64,000 nt of DNA from NCBI GenBank assembly GCA_018175275.1, contig GCA_018175275.1_4531.1. One strand, written 5' to 3'. How positions within the stretch are numbered: position 1 is the first letter of the stretch; each line of letters begins with the position of its first letter. Positions 15,699-50,863 of this stretch are shown in pieces. Source of the stretch: a phage. The notes under the pieces are model-generated. The model saw only the letters and a list, made by a program, of their open reading frames with translations. It made no database searches and was not told the origin of the DNA. Position numbers and translations under genes: made by a program.

Positions 15699-16055
15699 AT
15701 GGGTACTATTATTTGGCTTGATGATTTACGTGATCCAAAAGATTATGGTTATCCAGATGCAATCTGGTTTAAAACATCACAGGAACTTCTTGCCTCTCGT
15801 TACATGAATGAGGTGCAGAAGGGTTATCGTTTTGTAGACGAGTGGCATTTTGACAACGATTTGGGTGAAGACTCTGATCGAGATGGGTATGATGTTTTCT
15901 TACATTTGGAAGAACTCCTGATGTTTGGTAAACCTTGTTTTGGTTCACCTACTATTTTCGTGCATACTTCTAATCCCTCCGCTGGGGATAAATTCATGCT
16001 TGCAAAAGAATCCATGCTGCGTTATGGTATTCAAATGAAGCGTGTTCACTATTAA
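15699..16055 (+). CDS. hypothetical protein
   Basis: 118-aa ORF with GAGGAGG RBS. Confidence 0.4.
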   Translation: MGTIIWLDDLRDPKDYGYPDAIWFKTSQELLASRYMNEVQKGYRFVDEWHFDNDLGEDSDRDGYDVFLHLEELLMFGKPCFGSPTIFVHTSNPSAGDKFMLAKESMLRYGIQMKRVHY

Positions 16056-16066
16056 GGAGAAACTTA

Positions 16067-16423
16067 ATGAGCAGTATTGATCAGAACATTTGTTACCAAC
16101 CTCTCGCTTGGATCGGTGAGGGGCATTATGCGCAACGTGTTATCGTCTGTGCTGCGAATAAGTATATTTTGAATAATGGTGAAGAATTAATTATTCCTTG
16201 CGTTAGACATGCAAATCCTGTATTATCTGCACAATTGAATGTATTGAAAGAAGCAGGTGTGCTTGATAAAGCGCATTGCCTTCCAAACAATCAAGGTTTT
16301 ATTGATCAATACTACAATTGGTGGAGTCGTGAAGATGCATACATCATTGCAAAACACGCAGACCAGATTGACTACGAACGTAATGGTCATGATCGTGACC
16401 TATTTAGCGAGGGATTATACTAA
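16067..16423 (+). CDS. hypothetical protein
   Basis: 118-aa ORF with AAGGAGA RBS, immediately upstream of the RNA-repair genes. Confidence 0.4.
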   Translation: MSSIDQNICYQPLAWIGEGHYAQRVIVCAANKYILNNGEELIIPCVRHANPVLSAQLNVLKEAGVLDKAHCLPNNQGFIDQYYNWWSREDAYIIAKHADQIDYERNGHDRDLFSEGLY

Positions 16424-16974
16424 TGTTTATTACAAGTGATTTGCATTTTATGCACAAACGTATACGAGAGTTTGCTCCTGAATATCGACCGTGGGAGGAT
16501 ATGGACCACATGACAGAAGCCTTGATCGAAGCATGGAACAAATGTGCTACTACTCCTGGTGTTAAGATGTGGCATTTGGGCGACTTCTGTTTCGGAACTG
16601 AAGAAGATACCCGTAAAATTGCTTCTCGTCTCCAAGGAGATATCACCTACTGTGTTGGGAACCATGACTACAGCAAACACCGAGAAGTGCTTGCAGAGTA
16701 TGGTGAAGTGGTGTATTATGACGAAGTGAAATATCAGAAGCTGTTCTTCGTCTTAAGTCATTACCCTATGGCCTCCTGGAACAAACAAGGTCGTGGATCA
16801 ATCATGCTACACGGGCATTCCCACGGATCTTTCCCTGATGAAGCTTATGGTAAAATGTTAGATGTGGGTTGGGATGCACACGGAAAAATCTTGCATTTTG
16901 ATGAGATAATTACTATGATGAGTAAACGAGATATCGTGACTGTAGACCATCACAAAATAATCAAAGGAGAGTAA
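16423..16974 (+). CDS. calcineurin-like metallophosphoesterase (candidate RNA end-healing phosphatase)
   Basis: 183 aa; motifs SDLHF, LGDFCFG, VGNHD, LHGHSHG; translationally coupled to the RNA ligase gene. Confidence 0.6.
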   Translation: MFITSDLHFMHKRIREFAPEYRPWEDMDHMTEALIEAWNKCATTPGVKMWHLGDFCFGTEEDTRKIASRLQGDITYCVGNHDYSKHREVLAEYGEVVYYDEVKYQKLFFVLSHYPMASWNKQGRGSIMLHGHSHGSFPDEAYGKMLDVGWDAHGKILHFDEIITMMSKRDIVTVDHHKIIKGE

Positions 16975-16975
16975 T

Positions 16976-17908
16976 GTGACTAAATTTAATTGCGACGATT
17001 TGGTTGAAAAAGGTTTAGTTCATAAGAAAACATATAAAGAAGGAGAGTATTCTGGTCTATCTGTTCTTAAGTATAAGAACAAAGTTTTCTGGGATAACCT
17101 GTGGAACATTGATTCTCGTCTTCTAGAATGTCGCGGAATCGTTGTTGACGCTGATGACAATGTTGTTATTTGGCCTTTCACTAAGATTTTTAATCGTTTT
17201 GAGAATGGCACAGATCTACCAGCGGATGAATTTGTAGATGTGGTTCGTAAAGTAAATGGTTTTATGGCCTCTGTAGGTGTATATAAAGGTCAACTTATTG
17301 TATCGACAACAGGAAGCCTTGAATCAGATTTTGCAAGTATTGCAAAGAATCATATTGTTTCAGAGTGTGATGACATAGAACATTTCATCAAATGGACAGA
17401 GAGTGCAAAAGCAACTTTCCTTTTTGAAATCTGTGATCCTTCTGATCCGCATATTGTCGAAGAAGAACCAGGTGCATACTTAATTGGTGCCAGAATTCAA
17501 AACCCTGATGGGACAAGTTTTATGTTACCTGAAGGTGCTCTTGATGGAATTGCTTCTGTCACCAAATTTAAGCGTCCTGAAGTTCATCCAATGGTTAAGT
17601 TTTCAGATGTTGTTGAAATGTCTAAACATTGTAAACACGAAGGGTTTGTAGTTCGTGAAACAAACTATCCGTTCAACTTACTTTTAAAAATTAAATCACC
17701 ACACTATCTTACTAAGAAGTTTCTTATGCGCGGTGGAGATAAAAAGTGGGATCTGATTTGGGATAATCCAAAAAATGCCAAACAAATGGTTGACGAAGAA
17801 TATTACGCTTTGTTAGAATGGATTCGAAATAATTTTACGAAGACTCAATGGGCTGCTTTAAATCAGCAAGAGCGACGTGAAAAAATCGAAAACTTTTTTG
17901 GAGGATAA
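16976..17908 (+). CDS. RNA ligase, T4 Rnl1-like
   Basis: 310 aa; LLECRGIVVDADDNV resembles T4 Rnl1 ALECRGIMFEMDGE; nucleotidyltransferase motifs KVNGF (I), EGFVVRE (IV), LLLKIKSP (V); GTG start with AAGGAGAG RBS. Confidence 0.6.
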   Translation: MTKFNCDDLVEKGLVHKKTYKEGEYSGLSVLKYKNKVFWDNLWNIDSRLLECRGIVVDADDNVVIWPFTKIFNRFENGTDLPADEFVDVVRKVNGFMASVGVYKGQLIVSTTGSLESDFASIAKNHIVSECDDIEHFIKWTESAKATFLFEICDPSDPHIVEEEPGAYLIGARIQNPDGTSFMLPEGALDGIASVTKFKRPEVHPMVKFSDVVEMSKHCKHEGFVVRETNYPFNLLLKIKSPHYLTKKFLMRGGDKKWDLIWDNPKNAKQMVDEEYYALLEWIRNNFTKTQWAALNQQERREKIENFFGG

Positions 17909-18313
17909 ATGAAACAACTTATCATTTTACGTGGCGTTTCAGGTGCTGGTAAATCTACAGTAGCAGAAATTATTTCTGAAGGTTATTGGCCTATCTGTGA
18001 GGCAGATCAATATCATTACACAGAGAGTGGTGTTTACGATTGGAAGCCAGAAAATGTAGGTAAAGCACACGCATGGTGTCAGGGTATTGTTCGTGATGCT
18101 ATGGCATCTAATCTTAACAAGATTATTGTTTCTAATACTTCAACCACAGAGAAAGAACTTAAACCTTATCTAGCTCTTGCTGAAGAGTTTGGTTATCAAG
18201 TTATCTCTTTAGTTGTTGAAAATAGGCACGGTAATGATTCAATTCACGAGGTTCCACAATATATCCGTGATCAGCAAGAGAAACGTCTTCGTGGTTCACT
18301 TAAACTTCAATAA
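17909..18313 (+). CDS. pnk: polynucleotide 5'-kinase (T4 Pnk kinase-domain-like P-loop kinase)
   Basis: 134 aa; MKQLIILRGVSGAGKSTVAEII resembles T4 Pnk [23 protein letters not shown]; Walker A GxxGxGKS. Confidence 0.55.
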   Translation: MKQLIILRGVSGAGKSTVAEIISEGYWPICEADQYHYTESGVYDWKPENVGKAHAWCQGIVRDAMASNLNKIIVSNTSTTEKELKPYLALAEEFGYQVISLVVENRHGNDSIHEVPQYIRDQQEKRLRGSLKLQ

Positions 18314-18322
18314 GGAGAAATA

Positions 18323-18649
18323 ATGCAGATTTATACAGATGATCGTAAATATGAGACAATTTTAGATGAAGATACTGGACGAATTACCGTTCTCCGTCAC
18401 GGTGAAGAGTGGCGTGATGAAACGGGAGACAATTATATCTTGTCTCTGATTCATCTTATTGAACAAATGCGTGATGATTACGCTGAACTGCATTATGAAA
18501 ATGAGGCTAATAAAGTAAAATTTGAAAATGAATTAGAAGAGAAAGAATCCGAAATGGTATATCTAAAAGAAGAGATCTCCCGTTTGGAGGAAGAGATTGA
18601 TGCTCTTCAAGAAGAGATTTACGAACTCAACAACGAACTGAACGCTTAA
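18323..18649 (+). CDS. hypothetical coiled-coil protein
   Basis: 108 aa; C-terminal heptad-like EEISRLEEEIDALQEEIYELNNEL. Confidence 0.4.
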   Translation: MQIYTDDRKYETILDEDTGRITVLRHGEEWRDETGDNYILSLIHLIEQMRDDYAELHYENEANKVKFENELEEKESEMVYLKEEISRLEEEIDALQEEIYELNNELNA

Positions 18650-18658
18650 GGAGGGATT

Positions 18659-18847
18659 ATGAAAAAAGATATCGTTGTTGGTTGGCTGACTTGCCCTTGT
18701 GGTAGTAATGACATAACTGTAAACACAGAGGGTGATAAAAATTATTTATTCTACGGGGATAAAATCACTTGCAATACCTGCGGACGTGTTGGTATTATAG
18801 AAACCGATGATTGTTGTGCTTTTGAATCTTGGGATGAAGAAGAATGA
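18659..18847 (+). CDS. hypothetical zinc-ribbon protein
   Basis: 62 aa; CPCG...CNTCG cysteine pairs. Confidence 0.4.
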   Translation: MKKDIVVGWLTCPCGSNDITVNTEGDKNYLFYGDKITCNTCGRVGIIETDDCCAFESWDEEE

Positions 18848-19065
18848 GTACTGCATTTTATGTTCGTAGCGGAGACGAGGATTTTCTGGCTACTTTTGAT
18901 GACGGTGATATTGAAGATATGTATGACGATATGCTTGACTATGCCAAAGGGCAAGGTTTCACAAGCATTGATTATATGTTGGCAACATCTACAACGTTAC
19001 TCGACGCAGATTTGGATGAAGTGTGTAACAGATTGAAAATTTCAGTTTTTAAATGGGAGGACTAA
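18844..19065 (+). CDS. hypothetical acidic small protein
   Basis: 73-aa ORF, Asp/Glu-rich. Confidence 0.35.
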   Translation: MSTAFYVRSGDEDFLATFDDGDIEDMYDDMLDYAKGQGFTSIDYMLATSTTLLDADLDEVCNRLKISVFKWED

Positions 19066-20180
19066 TGCAACAAACAAATCAAACGCTGTATGGTAAAGAT
19101 TCAAAAGGAAAACTTAAACAGTGGACAGTGTATACAGATGGTGCAGTTGTTACTGTAGCTCATGGAAGGGTAGGTGGAAAAATCACAGAAAAATCTTATA
19201 CAGCAGAAGCAAAAAACATCGGTCGTTCCAATGAAACAACACCGGAAGAACAAGCTGAACTTGAAGCTTTTGCCAAATGGACAAAACAGTTAAAGAATGG
19301 CTATTATAAAACAAAAGAAGAAGCTGAAAACCATGTTCCTTCTACACCAATGAAATGCCAGGATTATAAAGATTATCCTGAAAGGGTTGTGTTCCCTGGT
19401 TATGCACAATACAAACTGAACGGGTTACGTTCTATGATTAACATGAAAGGGGAGTGTTTATCAAAAGCTGGGGAAGTGTATAACCTGCCACCTCATTGGA
19501 AAGGTATTCCAAACTTTATTAGTGAAGTTGTTGGTCATCCTCTTGATGGTGAAGTGTTTGCTGGGTTAGGTGTCCTTAGTCTGCAACAAATTAATAGTGC
19601 CTGGAAGAAGCATAATGCAAATACACCTTTGCTGAATTATTACGTATATGATATTCCAGTTCCAGATCTACCGTTTGAAAAACGTGTTGATGTTCTTGCT
19701 GCTCTTAAGGCAGTAGTTGAAGATTATGGTCTTGATGAGCTTATTTGTGTAGTTCATACAGAGTATATTGAAAACCAAGAACAGTTTGATGCTTTCTATG
19801 AAAAAGCTTTACTTGAAAAGGCTGAAGGTGTAGTATATCGTAATGCTCGCGGAGTTTACGAATTTGATAAACGCTCTTATGACGTTATTAAACGTAAACC
19901 TCGTCATACTCTTGAAGTTAAAGTAACAAATTCAAAAAGTGATAAAAATGGTGATGGAGTGTTGACAGGCGAGATGGAAAATGGTAAAGTAGTCGAATTC
20001 TTAATGCGTAAAGATGCTCATGAGACTATCAATTATCGTAAAGCAGAGAATGCTTCTACCTTGATTAATCAGTTCGTTGAAATAGAATATGAAGAATTTT
20101 CAGATGAAGGTATTCCGACAAAACCTGTTGGTGTTCGTATTCGAGAAATGATCCCAGGCACTTGGGAACCAGCAGAGTAA
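19065..20180 (+). CDS. ATP-dependent nucleic-acid ligase (nucleotidyltransferase superfamily; DNA vs RNA ligase unresolved)
   Basis: motif I K-L-N-G-L-R (Asn where DNA ligases have Asp), motif IV EGVVYR, motif V VIKRK; ATG at 19065 with GGGAGGA RBS. Confidence 0.55.
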   Translation: MQQTNQTLYGKDSKGKLKQWTVYTDGAVVTVAHGRVGGKITEKSYTAEAKNIGRSNETTPEEQAELEAFAKWTKQLKNGYYKTKEEAENHVPSTPMKCQDYKDYPERVVFPGYAQYKLNGLRSMINMKGECLSKAGEVYNLPPHWKGIPNFISEVVGHPLDGEVFAGLGVLSLQQINSAWKKHNANTPLLNYYVYDIPVPDLPFEKRVDVLAALKAVVEDYGLDELICVVHTEYIENQEQFDAFYEKALLEKAEGVVYRNARGVYEFDKRSYDVIKRKPRHTLEVKVTNSKSDKNGDGVLTGEMENGKVVEFLMRKDAHETINYRKAENASTLINQFVEIEYEEFSDEGIPTKPVGVRIREMIPGTWEPAE

Positions 20181-20302
20181 GGAGGAAAAATGTTTTTAGC
20201 CATTCTAATCGTTTTCAGTGCGCTTTCTTTTTATTGTATGAATGCTTCGGAAAACTTTCCTAAGAATTCAAAGAAAAGAACCGTATGTGTTGCGATTGAT
20301 TC

Positions 20303-20563
20303 ATGTATGTCTGGAGTTGGGTATGCGGTAGTTTCTTGTTTCTTAGCTTATCATTGTGCAAAATACTTGGAGGCATTTTTATGATAATTTTAGCAACAAT
20401 TCTTATGATGTTGATAGCAATTGCTATTGTAATACTGGCATCTTTTCCAGCGGATAAATGGTATTTCAATATTCCACGTATGCTTGTTTTCGGTTTTGCA
20501 GGAATTTACATGGGTGAGTCTGTAGTAAATATTAGCAACTTTCTAGAAAGCTATTTTAAATAA
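20303..20563 (+). CDS. hypothetical small membrane protein
   Basis: hydrophobic stretch ILATILMMLIAIAIVILASF; start ambiguous (ATG near 20381 possible). Confidence 0.3.
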   Translation: MYVWSWVCGSFLFLSLSLCKILGGIFMIILATILMMLIAIAIVILASFPADKWYFNIPRMLVFGFAGIYMGESVVNISNFLESYFK

Positions 20564-20572
20564 GGAGTTATA

Positions 20573-21298
20573 ATGATCGAGAATTTTTTTAAAGATATTA
20601 AATTCGATACTGAATTTTTCAAAAATGCAGCAAAGCACGTGATTGATTGGAATGCTAAAGCGCGAGGTGGTGAACAACCTGAATTTACTCAAGAGCTATT
20701 TATGTCCCAAATCGGGTTCGTTCGTGAAGAACTTAAAGAGTATGAAACAGCCGCGAAAGTAAACGATCATGTAGAACTCTTGGACGCAGCAGCAGATATT
20801 TTTGTAGTATCCAGTTATCTGACTTACATGTTCTTTGGTGAAGAACATACGATGAATTTCTTGGACTATACTGTAGGTGATGTTTTTACTCCGACTGTGT
20901 ATACTGACTTTGATGCTTTGGAACAAACATTTACAGAGCCAGTTCAAATGGCACTAATGGCTGCTGGTATTATGCGTATGTCTCGTGACACTCTCATTCG
21001 TTCAAAATATCCAGAAAAGAAAATTATTAAAGAAGTATTGAAAAGTAACGATTCCAAGTATCCAACTAAACAACAGTTGCTGAAAACTTGGAAAACTTCA
21101 GATATCGATTCAGCCATTGCACAAGAATGCACTGCAATTGAAGAACGAAACGCCAATCGTCCAGAAGGAGCATACACGGGTGTTCATGCTGTTTATAATG
21201 AAAAACAGAAAGTGTATGTGTTCTTTGATGATAAAGGTAAGATCATGAAGTGGTCAGGTTTCATTAAACCCAACATTGCAGCTATTATCAAAAAATGA
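20573..21298 (+). CDS. putative MazG-like nucleotide pyrophosphohydrolase
   Basis: 241 aa; REELKEYETAAKVNDHVELLDAAADIFVV resembles the MazG EExxE...D helix pair; weak call. Confidence 0.35.
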   Translation: MIENFFKDIKFDTEFFKNAAKHVIDWNAKARGGEQPEFTQELFMSQIGFVREELKEYETAAKVNDHVELLDAAADIFVVSSYLTYMFFGEEHTMNFLDYTVGDVFTPTVYTDFDALEQTFTEPVQMALMAAGIMRMSRDTLIRSKYPEKKIIKEVLKSNDSKYPTKQQLLKTWKTSDIDSAIAQECTAIEERNANRPEGAYTGVHAVYNEKQKVYVFFDDKGKIMKWSGFIKPNIAAIIKK

Positions 21299-21936
21299 TA
21301 GGTTCAACAAAGGGAGATTTTAGAATCTCCCGTCTTTCTGAAACCAAGATTGACAATCAAACTACTTTTGTATGTTTATGCTTGGTATGCCAAAAAGAAA
21401 GTTTAAGAACATTGTCCAGTCTGAAAAGATCAAAGAGTCCGAAATGCATGTATTGTAGTAAGGGCGATGGCCTATCTAATAAGGAACGATATACTTACGA
21501 AAGTTATCGTAATATGCTACAAAGGTGTTATAATGAAAATTGTGAGCACTATGATAGATACGGTGGACGAGGAATTACTGTTTGTGATGATTGGAAGAAA
21601 TCATTTAACACTTTCTTGAAAGACATGGGTAAGCGACCTAAAAACCATAGTTTAGATCGTGTAAATGTTGATCTTGGTTACAGTAAAGAGAATTGCAGAT
21701 GGACAACACAAAGTGAACAGATTCGAAACAGAGGTAAAACAAAAAGCAAGTATTCAAATTTTAGGGGAGTCTCCTATGACAAAGCTAAAAATAAATGGCT
21801 GGCTTTTATTTGTTTCGATAAGAAAACAAAATATTTAGGAAGATATACTACAGAGTTGGAAGCGGCTGAAGCTTACAATCTCGAAGCATTAGAGTTAGGT
21901 ATGTCTAACTATTTTTTAAATACCCGTTTTAAATAG
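21295..21936 (+). CDS. HNH homing endonuclease with AP2-type DNA-binding domain
   Basis: 213 aa; DRVNVDLGYSKENCRWTTQSEQIRN (HNH-like) plus FRGVSYDKAKNKWLAFI...GRYTTELEAAEAYN (AP2-like). Confidence 0.55.
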   Translation: MIGSTKGDFRISRLSETKIDNQTTFVCLCLVCQKESLRTLSSLKRSKSPKCMYCSKGDGLSNKERYTYESYRNMLQRCYNENCEHYDRYGGRGITVCDDWKKSFNTFLKDMGKRPKNHSLDRVNVDLGYSKENCRWTTQSEQIRNRGKTKSKYSNFRGVSYDKAKNKWLAFICFDKKTKYLGRYTTELEAAEAYNLEALELGMSNYFLNTRFK

Positions 21937-46165: not shown

Positions 46166-46187
46166 AACCCGCTTCGGCGGGTTTTTT
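46166..46187 (+). terminator. rho-independent terminator
   Basis: stem CCCGC/GCGGG with TTCG loop followed by TTTTTT. Confidence 0.55.
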
Positions 46188-46188
46188 A

Positions 46189-46217
46189 TTGACAGGAATC
46201 TGGAAGCTTGATAAACT
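46189..46217 (+). promoter_or_regulatory. sigma70-like promoter (TTGACA-N17-TAAACT)
   Basis: -35 46189-46194, -10 46212-46217, directly after the terminator. Confidence 0.45.
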
Positions 46218-46247: not shown

Positions 46248-47189
46248 ATGGTGTTAATTGGTAGCCGTGCATTACAAATTCATGCTATGGACATGGGAAA
46301 AGACTTGTATCGCCCTTGTGTAGATTTAGATTATCTCTGTACAGAACAAGAGTGGGAAGAATTATCAAAAATGTTCTCTCAAGACGAGTTTGTTGAACTT
46401 GTAGAACGTAAAGGGAACAAAGGCCATGTCAAAATGATAGCTGGTGCACATTTGGAATACGATATTGCTTCTCAAGGAGATAGCACAGAAGCTTTGATTA
46501 GTTATTGTGAAGATTCTGATGATGTTCGTCGAACTTACGCTGGACATGTTGTTGCTCCTTTAGATGTGCTCTACCTTCTTAAAATGAGTCATCGTTTTAA
46601 AAAGGATAGTCCTCACTTCTTTAAAACTATGAAAGATATTCATTTCATGCGGTCACTGGGCGCAAAGATCCCAGAAAATCTTAAGAGTATTTATGAGTTG
46701 CGTGAGAAAGAAACATACACTTACTCTCATCCGAACTTAAACGTAAAAAGTAAAGAGTTCTTTAAAGGTGACGAGGTTCCGTATGTTTATGATCATGATT
46801 CTATCCATGAAGCAATCGCGTTAATGGATGCTCCAGCATATAAATCTTATATGAAAGATGGAAGTGAAGTTATGACCAGCAAAGAAAAGTTTTTTGCTCA
46901 ACCAAAACATGTGCGGCTGTTAGGTGTTTATGAAGAAGCGTGTGTTTTGGCTTTGGAACGTTCACAAATTCCTTTCGGTGAAGAGATCGGAGGTCCAACC
47001 CCTAAGCAAAGTTTTATAATGGCTTTATCTAAAGTCTGCACATCCATCACTAGTGGTTGGTTTAGGGAATATGCTTGGGAAAACTTTTATGTTGTTATTA
47101 AGCTATATGAAAACATGGGCGAAAACGACTATGTTGAACGTTTTAAAGCTAATCAACATGTAGTAAAGCCTTTTGAAGGAGGTTATTAA
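46248..47189 (+). CDS. hypothetical protein (possible nucleotidyltransferase fold)
   Basis: 313 aa; N-terminal LIGSRALQIH...CVDLDYL loosely fits the GS...DxD pattern of pol-beta-type nucleotidyltransferases; unverified. Confidence 0.3.
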   Translation: MVLIGSRALQIHAMDMGKDLYRPCVDLDYLCTEQEWEELSKMFSQDEFVELVERKGNKGHVKMIAGAHLEYDIASQGDSTEALISYCEDSDDVRRTYAGHVVAPLDVLYLLKMSHRFKKDSPHFFKTMKDIHFMRSLGAKIPENLKSIYELREKETYTYSHPNLNVKSKEFFKGDEVPYVYDHDSIHEAIALMDAPAYKSYMKDGSEVMTSKEKFFAQPKHVRLLGVYEEACVLALERSQIPFGEEIGGPTPKQSFIMALSKVCTSITSGWFREYAWENFYVVIKLYENMGENDYVERFKANQHVVKPFEGGY

Positions 47190-47586
47190 TATGTGTGGAT
47201 ATCTTTCAGAAAGTTATTTCAAAGTGACGCATGAGGATTTAGAAAAAGCACGATTGAAACTGACAGCTATTATTGAATACTCTAATACTGTTGAACACAG
47301 ATTAAAGACTACTAAAGTATCTGTTCCTTGTTGGTTAGGTTTACGGCATAAAATAATGTCTCAACATGACCATGTTGTTCGAGAGATGCATGGTTGGTGT
47401 TGGTTTCACGATGTGGCTCTGCATTTTGGTTATATTACAGAAGAAGAGCATAGATTCTGTGAACTAACATATCGTATTCCAACCCTTCACGATTTAGATT
47501 TGTGGAAGAAAGCAAACGAGATTTTTCTTACAGAAAGTGATTGGCGTAAAGTTATGGCTTGTCTTGAATGGAGGGGTAATGAGTAA
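47173..47586 (+). CDS. hypothetical protein
   Basis: 137-aa ORF. Confidence 0.4.
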   Translation: MKEVINMCGYLSESYFKVTHEDLEKARLKLTAIIEYSNTVEHRLKTTKVSVPCWLGLRHKIMSQHDHVVREMHGWCWFHDVALHFGYITEEEHRFCELTYRIPTLHDLDLWKKANEIFLTESDWRKVMACLEWRGNE

Positions 47587-48262
47587 AACAGTTTTGTCTA
47601 TGTTTGACGGATCTGGGATCATGGTGTTACGTTATGCCGAAGCAGGTCACAAGTGTTTTTGTGTAAACGCTGATGAAGGGGATCACGGTAAATACGAGGT
47701 TAGGATGGAGCACCCAAACATAACCTATGTGAATGCTTGGATAGATTCTACATTCAACCCTGAAGATCATGGGATACCTAAACCCGATATTATTTTTGGA
47801 TTTCCACCTTGCACTATGTTAGCAGGTAGTGGTAGCAAACACGAACGCAGCACAGAGGAATTGGATGAAGCTTTAGCTAATATTCGTGTAGTGGAAGCTT
47901 TGGGTAACAAATATAATGTTCCTTGGATGATTGAGAACCCAGTAGGTAAACTTTCAACCTTATGGCGTAAACCCGATTTTTACTTTGATCCTTATGAGTA
48001 TGGTGGGTATTTGTTTGAAGAGGAAGGAAGCTTTCATCCTAAAATGCCTACCCGTGATGGGTATACAAAGAAAACTTGTATTTGGCACGGCAATGGTTTT
48101 GTTCAACCAGTGAAGAAACCAGTAGATCATATAGGCTGCTTCTGGGGTTGGAAAAGCTTAGGTGGAGCTAGTGCAAAAACAAAACAACTTAGATCCCTAA
48201 CCGCACGTGGTTTTGCTCGTGCCGTGTTTTTGTCTAACAATCTTCTAGATAAGGAGAAATAA
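47579..48262 (+). CDS. C5-cytosine-methyltransferase-like small protein
   Basis: motif I LSMFDGSG, Pro-Cys motif GFPPCT, ENV-like MIENPVG; about 227 aa, no obvious target-recognition domain; start set at ATG 47579. Confidence 0.4.
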   Translation: MSKTVLSMFDGSGIMVLRYAEAGHKCFCVNADEGDHGKYEVRMEHPNITYVNAWIDSTFNPEDHGIPKPDIIFGFPPCTMLAGSGSKHERSTEELDEALANIRVVEALGNKYNVPWMIENPVGKLSTLWRKPDFYFDPYEYGGYLFEEEGSFHPKMPTRDGYTKKTCIWHGNGFVQPVKKPVDHIGCFWGWKSLGGASAKTKQLRSLTARGFARAVFLSNNLLDKEK

Positions 48263-48912
48263 TGTCAAATTCAAAACCAGTAGTTGCTTATCAAGTAGAT
48301 CGTAATGATGGTGAAGGAAGTGTTGTTATTTTCAGTACACACGGTCTTGAGGCTCGTCGAAAAGGTGCATATCGTTTAGAATGTGAGTTTGAAGACTGCA
48401 CAAGCCACCGTGTCAAACAATTCGATCAATATGCTGATAAAGGCTTCGTCCCTATCAAAGCCTTACTGGAAGATGGTTGGTGGGTATATTCTGCTTTTGA
48501 TGGTGTTAGACTCGACGAACCTGTAGGAGGTCTTGAGGCAGATTTTGACGAATGCGAAGATGGCTTGTATATTGAAGAGGATCTTGTATTTTCCCTTGAC
48601 GAGAAAAGCGTGTGGAAGAACTGGGAAGAAATGGAACGTCACGCGCATTTTATCAACAATGCTTTGATTCGTAAAGCTTGGTTTATGGAGGCGGTGAAGG
48701 TAGCGTATCCGCAGTTCACCTTTACAGAGGTTTGGGGCGGTCCACACCACATCACCCATACAGCATTTTTCGACTTCCCTGGTTCACGTTACAAAGGTAA
48801 TATAATGTGGGACTGGGATGAGAATAAACAACCTTCGGCTCAAGACTTCCGTTGTTATGTTTGCCAAGGCGATCAAGAAGCCCTTGACAAATACCTACAA
48901 AGTCTGGTATAG
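48262..48912 (+). CDS. hypothetical protein
   Basis: 216-aa ORF. Confidence 0.4.
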   Translation: MSNSKPVVAYQVDRNDGEGSVVIFSTHGLEARRKGAYRLECEFEDCTSHRVKQFDQYADKGFVPIKALLEDGWWVYSAFDGVRLDEPVGGLEADFDECEDGLYIEEDLVFSLDEKSVWKNWEEMERHAHFINNALIRKAWFMEAVKVAYPQFTFTEVWGGPHHITHTAFFDFPGSRYKGNIMWDWDENKQPSAQDFRCYVCQGDQEALDKYLQSLV

Positions 48913-48970
48913 TGCCAGCATCTGAACAAAGCCTCCTGTTTCAGGGGGCTTTTCTTTTATGGGAGGAAAT

Positions 48971-49462
48971 ATGTTTCAAGTAGAAATTCATGTGCACAAC
49001 AGTTGTTCAAATTGCGAAACTTGTGGTTACAATAGTTCAACCATGATCACTATTAGCGGAGACTTAGGAGATGCCAAGTTTGGCGAAGTTGCAAGCTGCT
49101 TCAGCGGAGAGGATGCAGATTGGCATGATATTGCACACTGGTTGGTGAGCAAACTAAAAGAAAAAGAGAAACCATTTCCTGCTCTGCTTGATCGTTCTCT
49201 TGTGGAAGATGCAGGTAAAGCATATGCAGACTATGCATATGCAGACGGGAAATATTTGGAAGATGATAAGGCTAACCATTTGCTTTATGTTTACTATGAA
49301 GCTGAATCTGCCTACGATAATTATTACAGCATGTCCAACATTCTACGTTTGTTTGCGGAGTTTGATATTTACTTTGAAGTGAGTTATTCTCAAGACGAAG
49401 TGCACGATTTGGATGACGAAGATTATGATGATTATGAGGAGGAAGAATGCCAAGACGATTAA
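48971..49462 (+). CDS. hypothetical highly acidic protein
   Basis: C-terminus DEVHDLDDEDYDDYEEEECQDD; ATG 48971 with GGGAGGAAAT RBS. Confidence 0.4.
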   Translation: MFQVEIHVHNSCSNCETCGYNSSTMITISGDLGDAKFGEVASCFSGEDADWHDIAHWLVSKLKEKEKPFPALLDRSLVEDAGKAYADYAYADGKYLEDDKANHLLYVYYEAESAYDNYYSMSNILRLFAEFDIYFEVSYSQDEVHDLDDEDYDDYEEEECQDD

Positions 49463-50247
49463 TAGTGATCAGCGGCGCTGGCTTAAGCGCCGATAGCGGT
49501 GTTCGTACTTTCCGCACTGACACAGAAAGTGGCAAAGCTTTGTGGGATGAATACGACCTTTCTGAAGTGTGCGACATTTTCAACTTCCGTGCTGGATACC
49601 AACAAGAACAGTGTGTTCCTGGGGCTGTTGGCGGATTAGATGCAGAGGGATACAACCTCTACCGTAAAACTCATGACTTCTACAATAAACGTCGCGTAGA
49701 GATGGATAGTGTAACTCCTAACGCTGCGCATTACCAGATCGCGGAATGGTTTCAAGAGTACGGCTGTGATCGTGTTATCAACATCACGACAAACGTAGAT
49801 GATCTTCTGGAACAAGCGGGTGTTGTTCATGAAGATGTTCTACATGTTCACGGCTTCCTGCCTGAAGTGATCGTAGACAATAGAATCATCAAAGATGTTG
49901 GCTATGCTGCTATCGATGTGGATGATTACAAGTATGTGAAGCCCAATGTAGTGTTCTTTGGGGAGACTGCCCCATTGTATAACGATATGTACCACATCTT
50001 AGACGGCTTGACGGCTCAAGATATGGTGATTGTAGTGGGTTGCTCTAATCAAGTTATCAATTTTAACTGGGAGCTTTTTCCTGCTCTTAATAGCGGGACA
50101 AAAATGGTTGTAGTTAACCCTGGAGTTAATTACGAAGAAACACTTCTCTATGAAGATCGTGGAGTTTTTGTTTACCGAGAAAAAGCTGCAACAGCCTTCA
50201 GCAATGAAGGTTTCATTAAAATGGTCGAAGACCACTTAAACAAATAA
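49447..50247 (+). CDS. Sir2-family (sirtuin-like) NAD-binding protein
   Basis: 266 aa; GAGLSADSGVRTFR, ITTNVDDL, HVHG, VVFFGE motifs; no CxxC...CxxC zinc ribbon. Confidence 0.6.
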   Translation: MPRRLIVISGAGLSADSGVRTFRTDTESGKALWDEYDLSEVCDIFNFRAGYQQEQCVPGAVGGLDAEGYNLYRKTHDFYNKRRVEMDSVTPNAAHYQIAEWFQEYGCDRVINITTNVDDLLEQAGVVHEDVLHVHGFLPEVIVDNRIIKDVGYAAIDVDDYKYVKPNVVFFGETAPLYNDMYHILDGLTAQDMVIVVGCSNQVINFNWELFPALNSGTKMVVVNPGVNYEETLLYEDRGVFVYREKAATAFSNEGFIKMVEDHLNK

Positions 50248-50256
50248 ACCACTCAA

Positions 50257-50276
50257 GGGGCTTCGGCCCCTTTCTT
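50257..50276 (+). terminator. GGGGC-TTCG-GCCCC hairpin terminator
   Basis: third copy of the tetraloop hairpin followed by TTTCTT. Confidence 0.45.
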
Positions 50277-50290
50277 ATTAGGAGAATAAA

Positions 50291-50563
50291 ATGACTGAAG
50301 AAATCCGTGATTACTACCTTGCACATTACGTTTACTACTTTGCTAATGCTACACAAAAAGGGGAAGGTAATCTTTACTTGGCAACAGGACATGGAACAGG
50401 CGTTAGGAAATCAAATATTGATAATGCCTTGGCTCAAGTGGCTGCGGGGCTAGAAGATAAACTTCAAACACCTGTAGTTGTAGTGATGCAAAATATAAGT
50501 TACCTAGCAAGTTGTACTGAAACCGAATTTAACGCGTCTGAGACGCAATCTAACGAAGAATAA
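50291..50563 (+). CDS. hypothetical protein (last plus-strand gene)
   Basis: 90-aa ORF with AGGAGAA RBS. Confidence 0.4.
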   Translation: MTEEIRDYYLAHYVYYFANATQKGEGNLYLATGHGTGVRKSNIDNALAQVAAGLEDKLQTPVVVVMQNISYLASCTETEFNASETQSNEE

Positions 50564-50567
50564 AACA

Positions 50568-50597
50568 AAGGCACCCAAGTGGGTGCCTTTTCTATTT
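50568..50597. terminator. bidirectional terminator at the convergence of plus and minus blocks
   Basis: stem GGCACCC/GGGTGCC (AAGT loop) flanked by A-run upstream and TTTTCTATTTT downstream. Confidence 0.55.
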
Positions 50598-50632
50598 TAG
50601 AGCGTCTCTGTTCGATTTAGGTGGGTTCTAGC

Positions 50633-50863
50633 TTACTTGTGCAGTGCTCTCTCGTATAACTCGATGATCAATTCATCCTCTACTGTAATACGCGCCATTT
50701 GATCCGTCTTGAGTATTGTTGGTTGGTAGTGGTGCATTTCACTATTGATACTACAATCCCATTCGTCATAACCTAAATACTCTCCTACATGGACCTTAAC
50801 CATAAAGGGAAACGGGTTATCTACCAAAAATGCCATACAACCTTCTTCGATTTTATTTAACAC
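50633..50863 (-). CDS. hypothetical small protein
   Basis: 76-aa ORF. Confidence 0.35.
   Translation of the reverse strand: MLNKIEEGCMAFLVDNPFPFMVKVHVGEYLGYDEWDCSINSEMHHYQPTILKTDQMARITVEDELIIELYERALHK

Follow-up and report, generated by a model that had tools for sequence, protein, structure and literature searches.

A zinc-less sirtuin and the small acidic protein encoded ahead of it in a phAPEC8-like phage of Escherichia coli

The present analysis concerns two overlapping plus-strand genes at positions 48971-50247 of a 64,000-nt stretch of phage DNA (contig GCA_018175275.1_4531.1 of GenBank assembly GCA_018175275.1), the whole of which is referred to below as the window. The upstream gene specifies a small, strongly acidic protein, and the downstream gene a sirtuin (Sir2-family protein) that lacks the zinc ribbon of its classical relatives. 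Judged by sequence, the window is a Phapecoctavirus (Stephanstirmvirinae), that is, a phAPEC8-like virulent E. coli phage, the segment 48262-50600 sharing 98.8% identity with Escherichia phage SKA64 and 93.7% with phAPEC8. The locus is a known, annotated phage sirtuin gene, labelled 'putative Sir2-like protein' or 'Sir2 (NAD-dependent deacetylase)' in SKA64 and phAPEC8; an identical protein is already public (P0001, 100% identity), and both the zinc-less form (2016) and a predicted role in RNA repair (2022) have been published. The two genes lie towards the end of a long block of plus-strand genes, just before the directions of transcription converge, and the block also carries genes for DNA ligase, MazG, exonucleases, thymidylate synthase, ribonucleotide reductase, dTDP-sugar metabolism, PhoH and methyltransferases. 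The pair is laid out as follows.

48971-49462, plus strand: gene for the acidic protein, 163 aa (phrog_9509, E=7e-63), with a folded N-terminal domain and a disordered tail rich in Asp, Glu and Tyr (D/E/Y)
49447-50247, plus strand: gene for the zinc-less phage sirtuin, 266 aa (phrog_2162), recognised by open reading frame (ORF), Pfam, PHROG, AlphaFold2 (AF2) and Foldseek
49447-49462, plus strand: overlap of the two genes, 16 nt, read from the sequence

The sirtuin and its missing zinc ribbon

The original prediction, which was made from the letters of the window without database searches, had described the second gene as a Sir2-family ORF with VVFFGE and HG motifs, and this is borne out, since the product matches the Pfam family SIR2 (PF02146) with 72.3 bits (E=6.5e-20; gathering cut-off, 24 bits) and phrog_2162 with E=5.9e-102, and the motifs could all be located.

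49474-49515, plus strand: NAD-binding motifs GAGLS (residues 10-14) and SGVRTFR (residues 17-23), with residues invariant in 40 homologues
49681-49692, plus strand: Y79-N-K-R82, the class III YxxR pair, aligned with CobB Y92/R95
49786-49800, plus strand: TTNVD (residues 114-118), a variant of the sirtuin motif TQNID, aligned with CobB VTQNID
49849-49854, plus strand: catalytic His135-Gly136 (in HVHG, residues 133-136), aligned with the catalytic HG of CobB and invariant
49855-49938, plus strand: stretch without cysteine in place of the zinc ribbon (residues 137-164), from sequence, homologues and model
49948-49965, plus strand: VVFFGE (residues 168-173), the substrate/NAD-ribose loop (FGE motif), with V168, F170, F171 and E173 invariant

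Across all 40 homologues compared (54-92% identity), the residues G10, A11, G12, S14, S17, F22, R23, Y79, R82 and R83 do not vary, and nor do N116, D118, H135, G136, F170, F171 and E173. In the TTNVD motif, Asn116 and Asp118 are retained while Thr115 stands in place of Gln throughout the clade, T115, N116, V117 and D118 all being invariant, and a GCS motif is found at residues 198-200. The catalytic set and the Y79/R82 pair are also constant in the more divergent sirtuins of T5, rV5-like phages, phi92, KVP40 and SE131, and the surrounding FYNxRR motif was found in those of T5, slur16, phi92, KVP40, SSE121 and SE131. The numbering of CobB Y92/R95 was checked against the names of the A76 and I131 mutants in 6rxm and 6rxq. 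Presumably the counterpart of Y79/R82 in SIRT5 is Y102/R105, to which succinyl-lysine or malonyl-lysine binds through its carboxylate.

The closest relatives of known structure, by sequence, are E. coli CobB (1.8e-15), Sir2Af2 (1ma3), SIRT5 and Sir2Af1. An AF2 model of the sirtuin (mean predicted local distance difference test, pLDDT, 91.8; predicted template-modelling score, pTM, 0.88) leads to the same enzymes: the top 50 Foldseek matches in the Protein Data Bank (PDB) are all canonical deacylases, with CobB first (TM-score 0.72 on the query, 0.85 on the target) and a probability of 1.00 to CobB, Sir2Af1 and SIRT5 (TM 0.7-0.85). In the model the fold is complete, with a Rossmann domain and a small domain, and to judge from its residues the enzyme appears to be active, with a site suited to an anionic group. 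Its net charge is -19, the median for the clade being -13.

The zinc ribbon itself, with its CxxC...CxxC arrangement, is absent, as had been claimed. None of the 28 residues between HG and KPNVVFFGE is a cysteine, and in the HMMER alignment the C..C...CxxC stretch of CobB faces the Cys-less PEVIVDNRIIKDVGYAAIDVDDYKYVKPNVVFFGE of the phage protein. At least two cysteines in this module were found in 0 of 107 close homologues, and the roughly 25 nearest clusters (50% identity) among the 1.84 billion cluster representatives searched are likewise Cys-free there. The module nevertheless keeps its beta strands in the model (136-143 and 147-150, pLDDT above 92), and its D(V/I)GY motif is conserved. 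Many remoter clusters (E about 1e-33 to 1e-18) have kept CxxC...CxxC, set among IGY and KPN motifs as here, and sequence comparison therefore indicates that the zinc site disappeared within a lineage of deacylase-like enzymes and that there was no convergence on the form seen in defence proteins. It had been proposed that loss of the ribbon marks the form found in defence NADases, but this did not hold up: beside the zinc-keeping relatives and the folds closest to CobB, Sir2Af1 and SIRT5, the Pfam search reported PF02146 alone and no defence-type family (SIR2_2), no defence Sir2 occurs among the 50 best Foldseek matches in the PDB, and the sole PADLOC match, to PDC-S65, has E=3e-4 and covers 39 residues (86-124). 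The Sir2 of KVP40-type phages has previously been modelled on CobB with its zinc ligands replaced by salt bridges, and deacetylase activity was argued for it (Skliros et al. 2016, PMC5107563). The ribbon is a structural and not a catalytic feature, and its loss in phage Sir2 is thus already published (PMC5107563).

The acidic protein and its coupling to the sirtuin gene

The upstream gene had been singled out for a strongly acidic product with an Asp/Glu-rich end, a description that agrees with the features found here. Those of the gene and of the intergenic regions are the following.

49013-49099, plus strand: CxxCG ... G..A.C motif (Cys15, Cys18 and Cys43 in the numbering from 48971), which may form a metal knuckle at the turn of a beta-hairpin
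49388-49459, plus strand: acidic tail SQDEVHDLDDEDYDDYEEEECQDD, the last 24 residues, 15 of the 24 being Asp or Glu
48884-48913, plus strand: promoter-like site TTGACA-18 nt-TATAGT with upstream TG (extended -10), overlapping the stop codon of the upstream gene
48928-48952, plus strand: GC-rich, intrinsic-terminator-like hairpin (11-bp stem, then a T-run) separating the upstream gene from the acidic gene
50255-50272, plus strand: terminator-like hairpin directly after the Sir2 stop codon, with a 7-bp stem (5 GC pairs) and a T-rich tail

The mechanical ORF of the acidic protein begins at 48959, but the conserved start is the ATG at 48971, as originally proposed; it lies behind a GGAGGA ribosome-binding site, and the homologues begin at the matching MFQV. 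The protein has a net charge of -30 and a pI of 4.08. In the AF2 model (pLDDT 77) a long beta-hairpin is followed by four helices, a final strand and the disordered tail, which falls below 50 (about 40). Strands 6-19 and 23-34 (167-aa numbering) flank the CxxC. Among the homologues from Stephanstirmvirinae, RaK2, 121Q and GAP32, the invariant features are CxxCG, G..A.C and one Leu, with three cysteines in all, and the conservation of these cysteines suggests a metal knuckle that would bind a metal. A further invariant cysteine in the tail was considered as the fourth ligand and rejected; its invariance follows from the gene overlap, in which the TG of its codon is the TG of the Sir2 ATG.

A D/E/Y-rich tail is present in every member of the family, including those without Sir2 next to them (RaK2, 121Q, GAP32 and FKP3), and the tail is thus under selection at the protein level. 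For the same reason, the idea that it is a mere by-product of the purine-rich ribosome-binding site of Sir2 was discarded. The family is a small one, with 9 clusters detected by a single sequence and 22 by the family profile among 5.8 billion proteins, and all of the clusters found are small stand-alone phage proteins. The window protein has no match in Pfam, NCBIfam, PADLOC or PDB profiles, and its matches in BFVD are only to uncharacterised proteins of phage ukendt, Erwinia phage pEa_SNUABM_47 and RaK2. A 173-aa gene between NMNAT and NAMPT of pEa_SNUABM_47 was examined as a candidate for the related BFVD entry and proved to be a different gene. The suggestion that the protein is a DNA mimic gains no support from these searches of Pfam, NCBIfam and PDB profiles, and the predicted structure puts much of the charge in a disordered tail.

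Public labels for members of this family are inconsistent. The homologue in Bas61 EmilieFrey (L013, 2435-2965) and that of JohannJBalmer are called 'putative aminoacyl-tRNA synthetase', a label that Pfam, NCBIfam and PDB profiles do not support for the Bas61 protein, and in Shigella phage SF1-1 (PQ571307.1, 53913-54335) and EF1-1 the label is 'major head protein', which is likewise unsupported. In Serratia phage BF (L015, NC_041917.1, 1498-2025) the homologue is split by one in-frame stop and annotated as two short genes, so that it is either a pseudogene or a sequencing error; tblastn matches in pEa_SNUABM_19 and pEa_SNUABM_50 span only the same first 71 residues as in BF. Two jumbo-phage metagenome contigs (L017, 2480-2983; L018, 1836-2339) have a gene for NADAR, an ADP-ribose-processing protein, two genes downstream of the acidic homologue, and the protein encoded between them is also acidic-tailed. 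A link between the acidic family and NADAR was dropped, as it is missing in a third contig and in RaK2, 121Q, GAP32 and BF.

The overlap itself is built so that the purine-rich end of the acidic gene, GAGGAGGAAGAATGCC, holds both the start codon of Sir2 and its predicted ribosome-binding site, GAGGAGGAA, 1 nt upstream of that codon. The same arrangement is seen in phi92, with a 13-nt overlap, although the acidic proteins are only 37% identical and the sirtuins 68%. Ahead of the pair, the promoter-like site is the best match to a sigma-70-type consensus in a 6-kb scan (11/12). The TGGTATAGT/TGGTATAAT block is kept in phi92 and EmilieFrey, but it doubles as the code for the C-terminus of the upstream protein. 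The first hairpin is stable (-16.4 kcal/mol, z=-3.7; 0 of 200 shuffles as stable), and its stem is retained in phi92 through changed bases, while the hairpin behind Sir2 is weak (-13.1 kcal/mol, z=-1.8). The near-consensus promoter-like site (TTGACA, 18 nt, TGGTATAGT) directly precedes the first hairpin, and a transcript starting there must read through it; the two elements (48884-48952), both kept in phi92-like phages, may form an attenuator or a 5' stabiliser. Because of the overlap, the flanking hairpins and the preceding promoter-like site, the acidic and sirtuin genes look like a small cassette of their own with a putative promoter.

Two relatives are interrupted at the same point. In Klebsiella phage FKP3 (L007, 2980-3630) a gene for an HNH homing endonuclease is inserted exactly at the overlap site between the acidic gene and Sir2, and the FKP3 acidic protein keeps EEEECQE, a relic of the overlap, and extends beyond it. 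Phage muut (MN850573.1, about 49977-50773) has a gap of about 0.8 kb between the two genes at the same site.

Distribution and genomic surroundings

By tblastn, the sirtuin is found in 979 of 50,697 phage records. The carriers include Phapecoctavirus, Justusliebigvirus (phi92), T5 and its relatives, Vequintavirinae, Mydovirus, Moazamivirus, KVP40-like phages and several jumbo-phage genera, with identities to the window protein of 68% in phi92, 53% in T5, about 50% in rV5-like phages (Vequintavirinae) and 36% in KVP40. No similar protein was found in 5,426 complete E. coli genomes. The acidic protein, which is confined to a few groups of large phages, occurs in 140 phage records, and about 85% of the Sir2 records do without it: Sir2 has no such neighbour in T5, rV5-like phages, KVP40, SE131 or jumbo phages, the jumbo phages having their acidic homologue 29-37 kb from Sir2 and always behind a DUF5856 gene. 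The original prediction had treated the two genes as a unit, and the overlap, the flanking hairpins and the conservation of the arrangement in phi92 speak for this, while the majority of Sir2 phages speak against it; on the sequence comparisons, the coupling is real but specific to Stephanstirmvirinae. The acidic protein was also considered as a zinc module supplied in trans, and this was rejected because the sirtuins of T5, rV5-like phages, KVP40 and SE131 are equally zinc-less and have no such neighbour. Nor are the genes upstream of Sir2 in T5 and slur16 remote homologues of it (hhalign probability below 1%).

Elsewhere the sirtuin keeps different company. The rV5-like phage slur16 has the order RNA ligase, cREC-like gene, Sir2, MazG, and the Seunavirus SSE121 has phosphoesterase, RNA ligase, kinase-type ATPase, Sir2, DNA ligase. 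In the jumbo phage pEa_SNUABM_47 the gene right after Sir2 is a Nudix-cREC fusion, and NMNAT and NAMPT (NAD+ salvage) lie 1-4 kb upstream, while in T5 a HAD_SAK_2 'RNA repair' phosphatase is encoded three genes downstream of Sir2. The window has RNA-repair-type genes of its own, at 15.7-21.3 kb and 31 kb from Sir2; they are listed below, followed by the hairpin that lies where the gene blocks converge.

15699-16055, plus strand: cREC_REC domain protein, in the predicted RNA-repair cluster
16423-16974, plus strand: calcineurin-like phosphoesterase, in the predicted RNA-repair cluster
16976-17908, plus strand: T4 Rnl1-type RNA ligase, in the predicted RNA-repair cluster
17909-18313, plus strand: P-loop kinase, in the predicted RNA-repair cluster
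19053-20180, plus strand: ATP-dependent DNA ligase, after the cluster
20573-21298, plus strand: MazG-like pyrophosphohydrolase, after the cluster
50567-50590, both strands: strong bidirectional terminator hairpin (-17.5 kcal/mol, z=-4.7) at the meeting point of the plus- and minus-strand gene blocks

The order at 15699-21298 resembles that of SSE121 (kinase, DNA ligase, MazG) without the Sir2 gene between kinase and DNA ligase. Among Salmonella-phage records, 289 have Sir2 and 15 an RNA ligase of the window type; 175 phage records from Pseudomonas and 78 from Streptomyces also contain this ligase, and Pseudomonas is outside the ten commonest genera of the Sir2 search. Sir2, acidic and RNA-ligase genes with 50-86% protein identity to those of the window also occur in several MG0656xx records under the name 'Campylobacter phage' (B15, C12, D1, A110a and others), whose host labels look doubtful.

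Some other features of the surroundings may be recorded here. The gene at 47537-48262 (plus strand) specifies a 241-aa protein of phrog_757 with motifs like those of C5-cytosine methyltransferases (FDGSG, FPPC, ENPVG) and no Pfam match; its PADLOC methyltransferase matches are weak, and it is too short for a target-recognition domain. A 42%-identical homologue lies directly upstream of Sir2 in Salmonella phage SE131 (Moazamivirus), where it overlaps the Sir2 gene, and phi92 has a larger methyltransferase at the equivalent relative position. Further upstream, 46248-47189 (plus strand) encodes a 313-aa protein with DUF7277 and DUF7275 domains (E=1e-75), preceded by a terminator-then-promoter arrangement (hairpin 46166-46183, TTGACA at 46189). 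The bidirectional hairpin at 50567-50590 coincides with a change of sign in GC skew near 50 kb. Inside the replication block, 21295-21936 (plus strand) specifies a 213-aa protein with a C-terminal AP2 DNA-binding domain (E=5e-7), and is probably a homing-endonuclease-type gene.

Possible functions and comparison with known systems

The observations of the original prediction are thus confirmed, while its interpretation is partly supported. The reading we favour, and hold tentatively, is that the sirtuin is an active NAD+-dependent deacylase-type enzyme of a phage-specific, zinc-less branch of the CobB/SIRT5-like (class III) sirtuins, since homology and the complete residue set both point there. 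To our knowledge, every characterised enzyme with this full residue set is a lysine deacylase. The protein would bind NAD+ in its Rossmann cleft, an oxygen of the substrate would attack C1' of the nicotinamide ribose with departure of nicotinamide, and His135 would then activate a ribose hydroxyl, resolving the intermediate. The favoured substrate would be acyl-lysine on host or phage proteins, probably carrying an acidic acyl group (succinyl, malonyl) or acetyl, with the phage supplying its own NAD+-dependent deacylase in the early/middle, nucleotide-metabolism phase of infection. In Stephanstirmvirinae the acidic protein would share a transcript and translational coupling with Sir2, but it would be a small phage protein in its own right, one that the enzyme family does not need. 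Several points weigh against the deacylase reading. The sequence is not that of a CobB orthologue, since the scores against the NCBIfam CobB equivalogs (NF040867, NF001755 and others) are all far below their cut-offs (99.5 against 243, 81.9 against 320 and 71.9 against 318 bits), and the residues fixed in the phage clade (W33, C42, T115 for Gln, C199 for the Thr of GTS, D(V/I)GY, KPN and NFNWELFP) point to an altered substrate site. CobB is already present in the host, and it is hard to see what the phage would gain. No experiment on any member of the phage-sirtuin family was found in the searchable literature, and in three other phage lineages Sir2 lies beside predicted RNA-end-processing genes, which favours a role in RNA repair.

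Under such a role, the main alternative, which we consider possible but not probable, the sirtuin would resemble Tpt1/KptA in removing, with NAD+, the 2'-phosphate from cleaved or religated tRNA. The 2'-phosphate would attack NAD+, nicotinamide would leave, and a ribose hydroxyl activated by His would release 2'-OH RNA and ADP-ribose 1'',2''-cyclic phosphate; it would be the phosphate, in place of a succinyl carboxylate, that Tyr79/Arg82 grips, and the enzyme would act with the RNA ligase, kinase, phosphoesterase and cREC of the phage in undoing anticodon-nuclease-type damage. A Tpt1-like role has been predicted from gene neighbourhoods for phage V5 (rV5) and the T5-like clade (Iyer, Burroughs, Anantharaman and Aravind 2022, PMC9503650). 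These neighbourhoods were reproduced here in slur16, SSE121, pEa_SNUABM_47 and T5; the window sirtuin falls within the predicted clade, in the same PHROG as T5 and with 50% identity to slur16; and the window encodes the whole set of partner enzymes. Judged from its residues, the full catalytic set with the Tyr/Arg pair would fit RNA phosphate and acyl-lysine equally well. Set against this, Sir2 is remote from the repair cluster of the window and its immediate neighbours are not RNA-repair genes, the phyletic patterns of Sir2 and RNA ligase match only in part, the functions of cREC and HAD_SAK are themselves only predictions, and adjacency is weaker evidence in the early regions of lytic phages, which cluster nucleic-acid enzymes, than in bacterial operons. 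We also know of no sirtuin that acts on RNA. The strong acidity of the sirtuin could be held against RNA binding, but this argument was set aside as weak, since the ligases of the phage are acidic too. A bolder version, in which this would be the first RNA-acting sirtuin, a non-homologous Tpt1/KptA analogue, with the acidic, Tyr-rich tail of the overlapping protein serving in Stephanstirmvirinae as a nucleic-acid-like regulator of its site, seems to us doubtful, and its second half, the tail as regulator, is when taken alone a speculation of very low probability.

It was also proposed originally that the protein is an NADase, an ADP-ribosyltransferase or a decoy. As a free NADase, a transferase acting on protein or DNA, or an inactive decoy, it would let the phage manipulate host NAD+ or blunt NAD+-based defences such as Thoeris, DSR or Sir2-HerA, a reading that we regard as improbable. 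Sirtuins can ADP-ribosylate, defence Sir2 domains are NADases without a zinc ribbon (general knowledge; PMC9503650), the neighbourhood of NAD+ salvage and Nudix genes in the jumbo phage pEa_SNUABM_47 would suit any NAD+-consuming enzyme, and a side activity of this kind is compatible with the data. A defence-type NADase was, however, rejected on the Pfam, PADLOC and fold evidence given above, the protein having no similarity to the defence Sir2 models and its nearest folds all being deacylases; a macrodomain gene is not adjacent as in SirTM, the neighbouring ORFs (48262-48912, 48971-49462 and 50291-50563) being without a Pfam match; and depletion of NAD+ would harm the needs of a lytic phage, whose relatives carry NAD+ synthesis genes. 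The decoy was rejected as well, since the catalytic His, Asn and Asp are invariant. A different alternative, rather unlikely in our view, concerns the acidic protein, which in this phage subfamily might work specifically with the sirtuin, whether by regulating it or posing as its substrate, with the acidic tail placed in the anion-binding site, or as a targeting subunit, or else, as originally proposed, might be the DNA-mimicking, anti-restriction half of an anti-defence pair. In its favour are the gene overlap kept between Phapecoctavirus and Justusliebigvirus despite the low identity of the acidic proteins, hairpins that bracket just these two genes, a tail selected at the protein level in all family members, and the charge of the protein. 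It is opposed by the Sir2 genes of T5, rV5-like phages, KVP40, SE131 and jumbo phages, which have no acidic neighbour; by the separation of the genes in jumbo phages, behind the DUF5856 gene; by the lack of any profile relation between the acidic protein and the genes upstream of Sir2 in T5 or slur16; by the endonuclease gene of FKP3 and the gap of similar size in muut; and by BFVD, which gives only uncharacterised phage proteins. A simple electrostatic complex is also unlikely between two proteins that are each strongly acidic.

The substrate question concerns the whole sirtuin family, whose members are spread over roughly a thousand sequenced phages, among them the model phage T5 and many therapeutic-candidate phages of E. 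coli, Salmonella and Klebsiella, and for which the window locus is no more testable than T5 or the BASEL phages. If the enzyme is a plain deacylase, large lytic phages reset the acylation of host proteins; if the RNA-repair prediction is true, there is a new class of sirtuin substrate and a new phage counter-measure to tRNA-cutting defences. What the present locus adds is a conserved coupling to a tiny, acidic protein family with three invariant cysteines, and the observation that the Sir2 gene need not lie with the RNA-repair cluster.

Among known systems, the defence Sir2 NADases (ThsA, DSR1/DSR2, Sir2-HerA and the Sir2 associated with short pAgo) have in common with the window sirtuin the Rossmann-type NAD+-binding superfamily and the absence of a zinc ribbon. 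The window protein differs in being single-domain, without a SLOG, HerA, pAgo or long C-terminal domain either fused or adjacent, and in being encoded by a virulent phage and not in a bacterial defence island. With Tpt1/KptA there is only a functional analogy (NAD+ as donor of ADP-ribose to an anionic oxygen, with release of nicotinamide), the fold and family being unrelated. The acidic protein is, like Ocr and ArdA, a small, strongly acidic phage protein of the early/middle region, but it has no sequence or structural similarity to them, and in the model its charge is concentrated in a disordered tail and not on a rigid DNA-shaped surface; its invariant three-cysteine motif is, we assume, missing from Ocr and ArdA. 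The nearest solved relatives of the sirtuin are E. coli CobB and human SIRT5, with which it has the catalytic His, Asn and Asp, the FGE motif and the YxxR pair in common at about 26% identity; it lacks their zinc cysteines, has Thr for the Gln of TQNID and Cys for the Thr of GTS, and relative to CobB carries an insertion of about 30 residues (43-71) that is unmatched in more distant relatives. Closest of all is the phage Sir2 family phrog_2162 (T5p100 of T5, the Sir2 of rV5/slur16, phi92 gp038 and KVP40.0043), in which the zinc-less module and FYNxRR are as in the window; TTNVD and GCS are common to the window, T5, rV5-like and phi92 sirtuins and were not found in KVP40. Compared with these relatives, the window Sir2 stands at the end of an operon, coupled to an acidic gene and outside the RNA ligase/kinase cluster, while the enzyme itself is otherwise alike.

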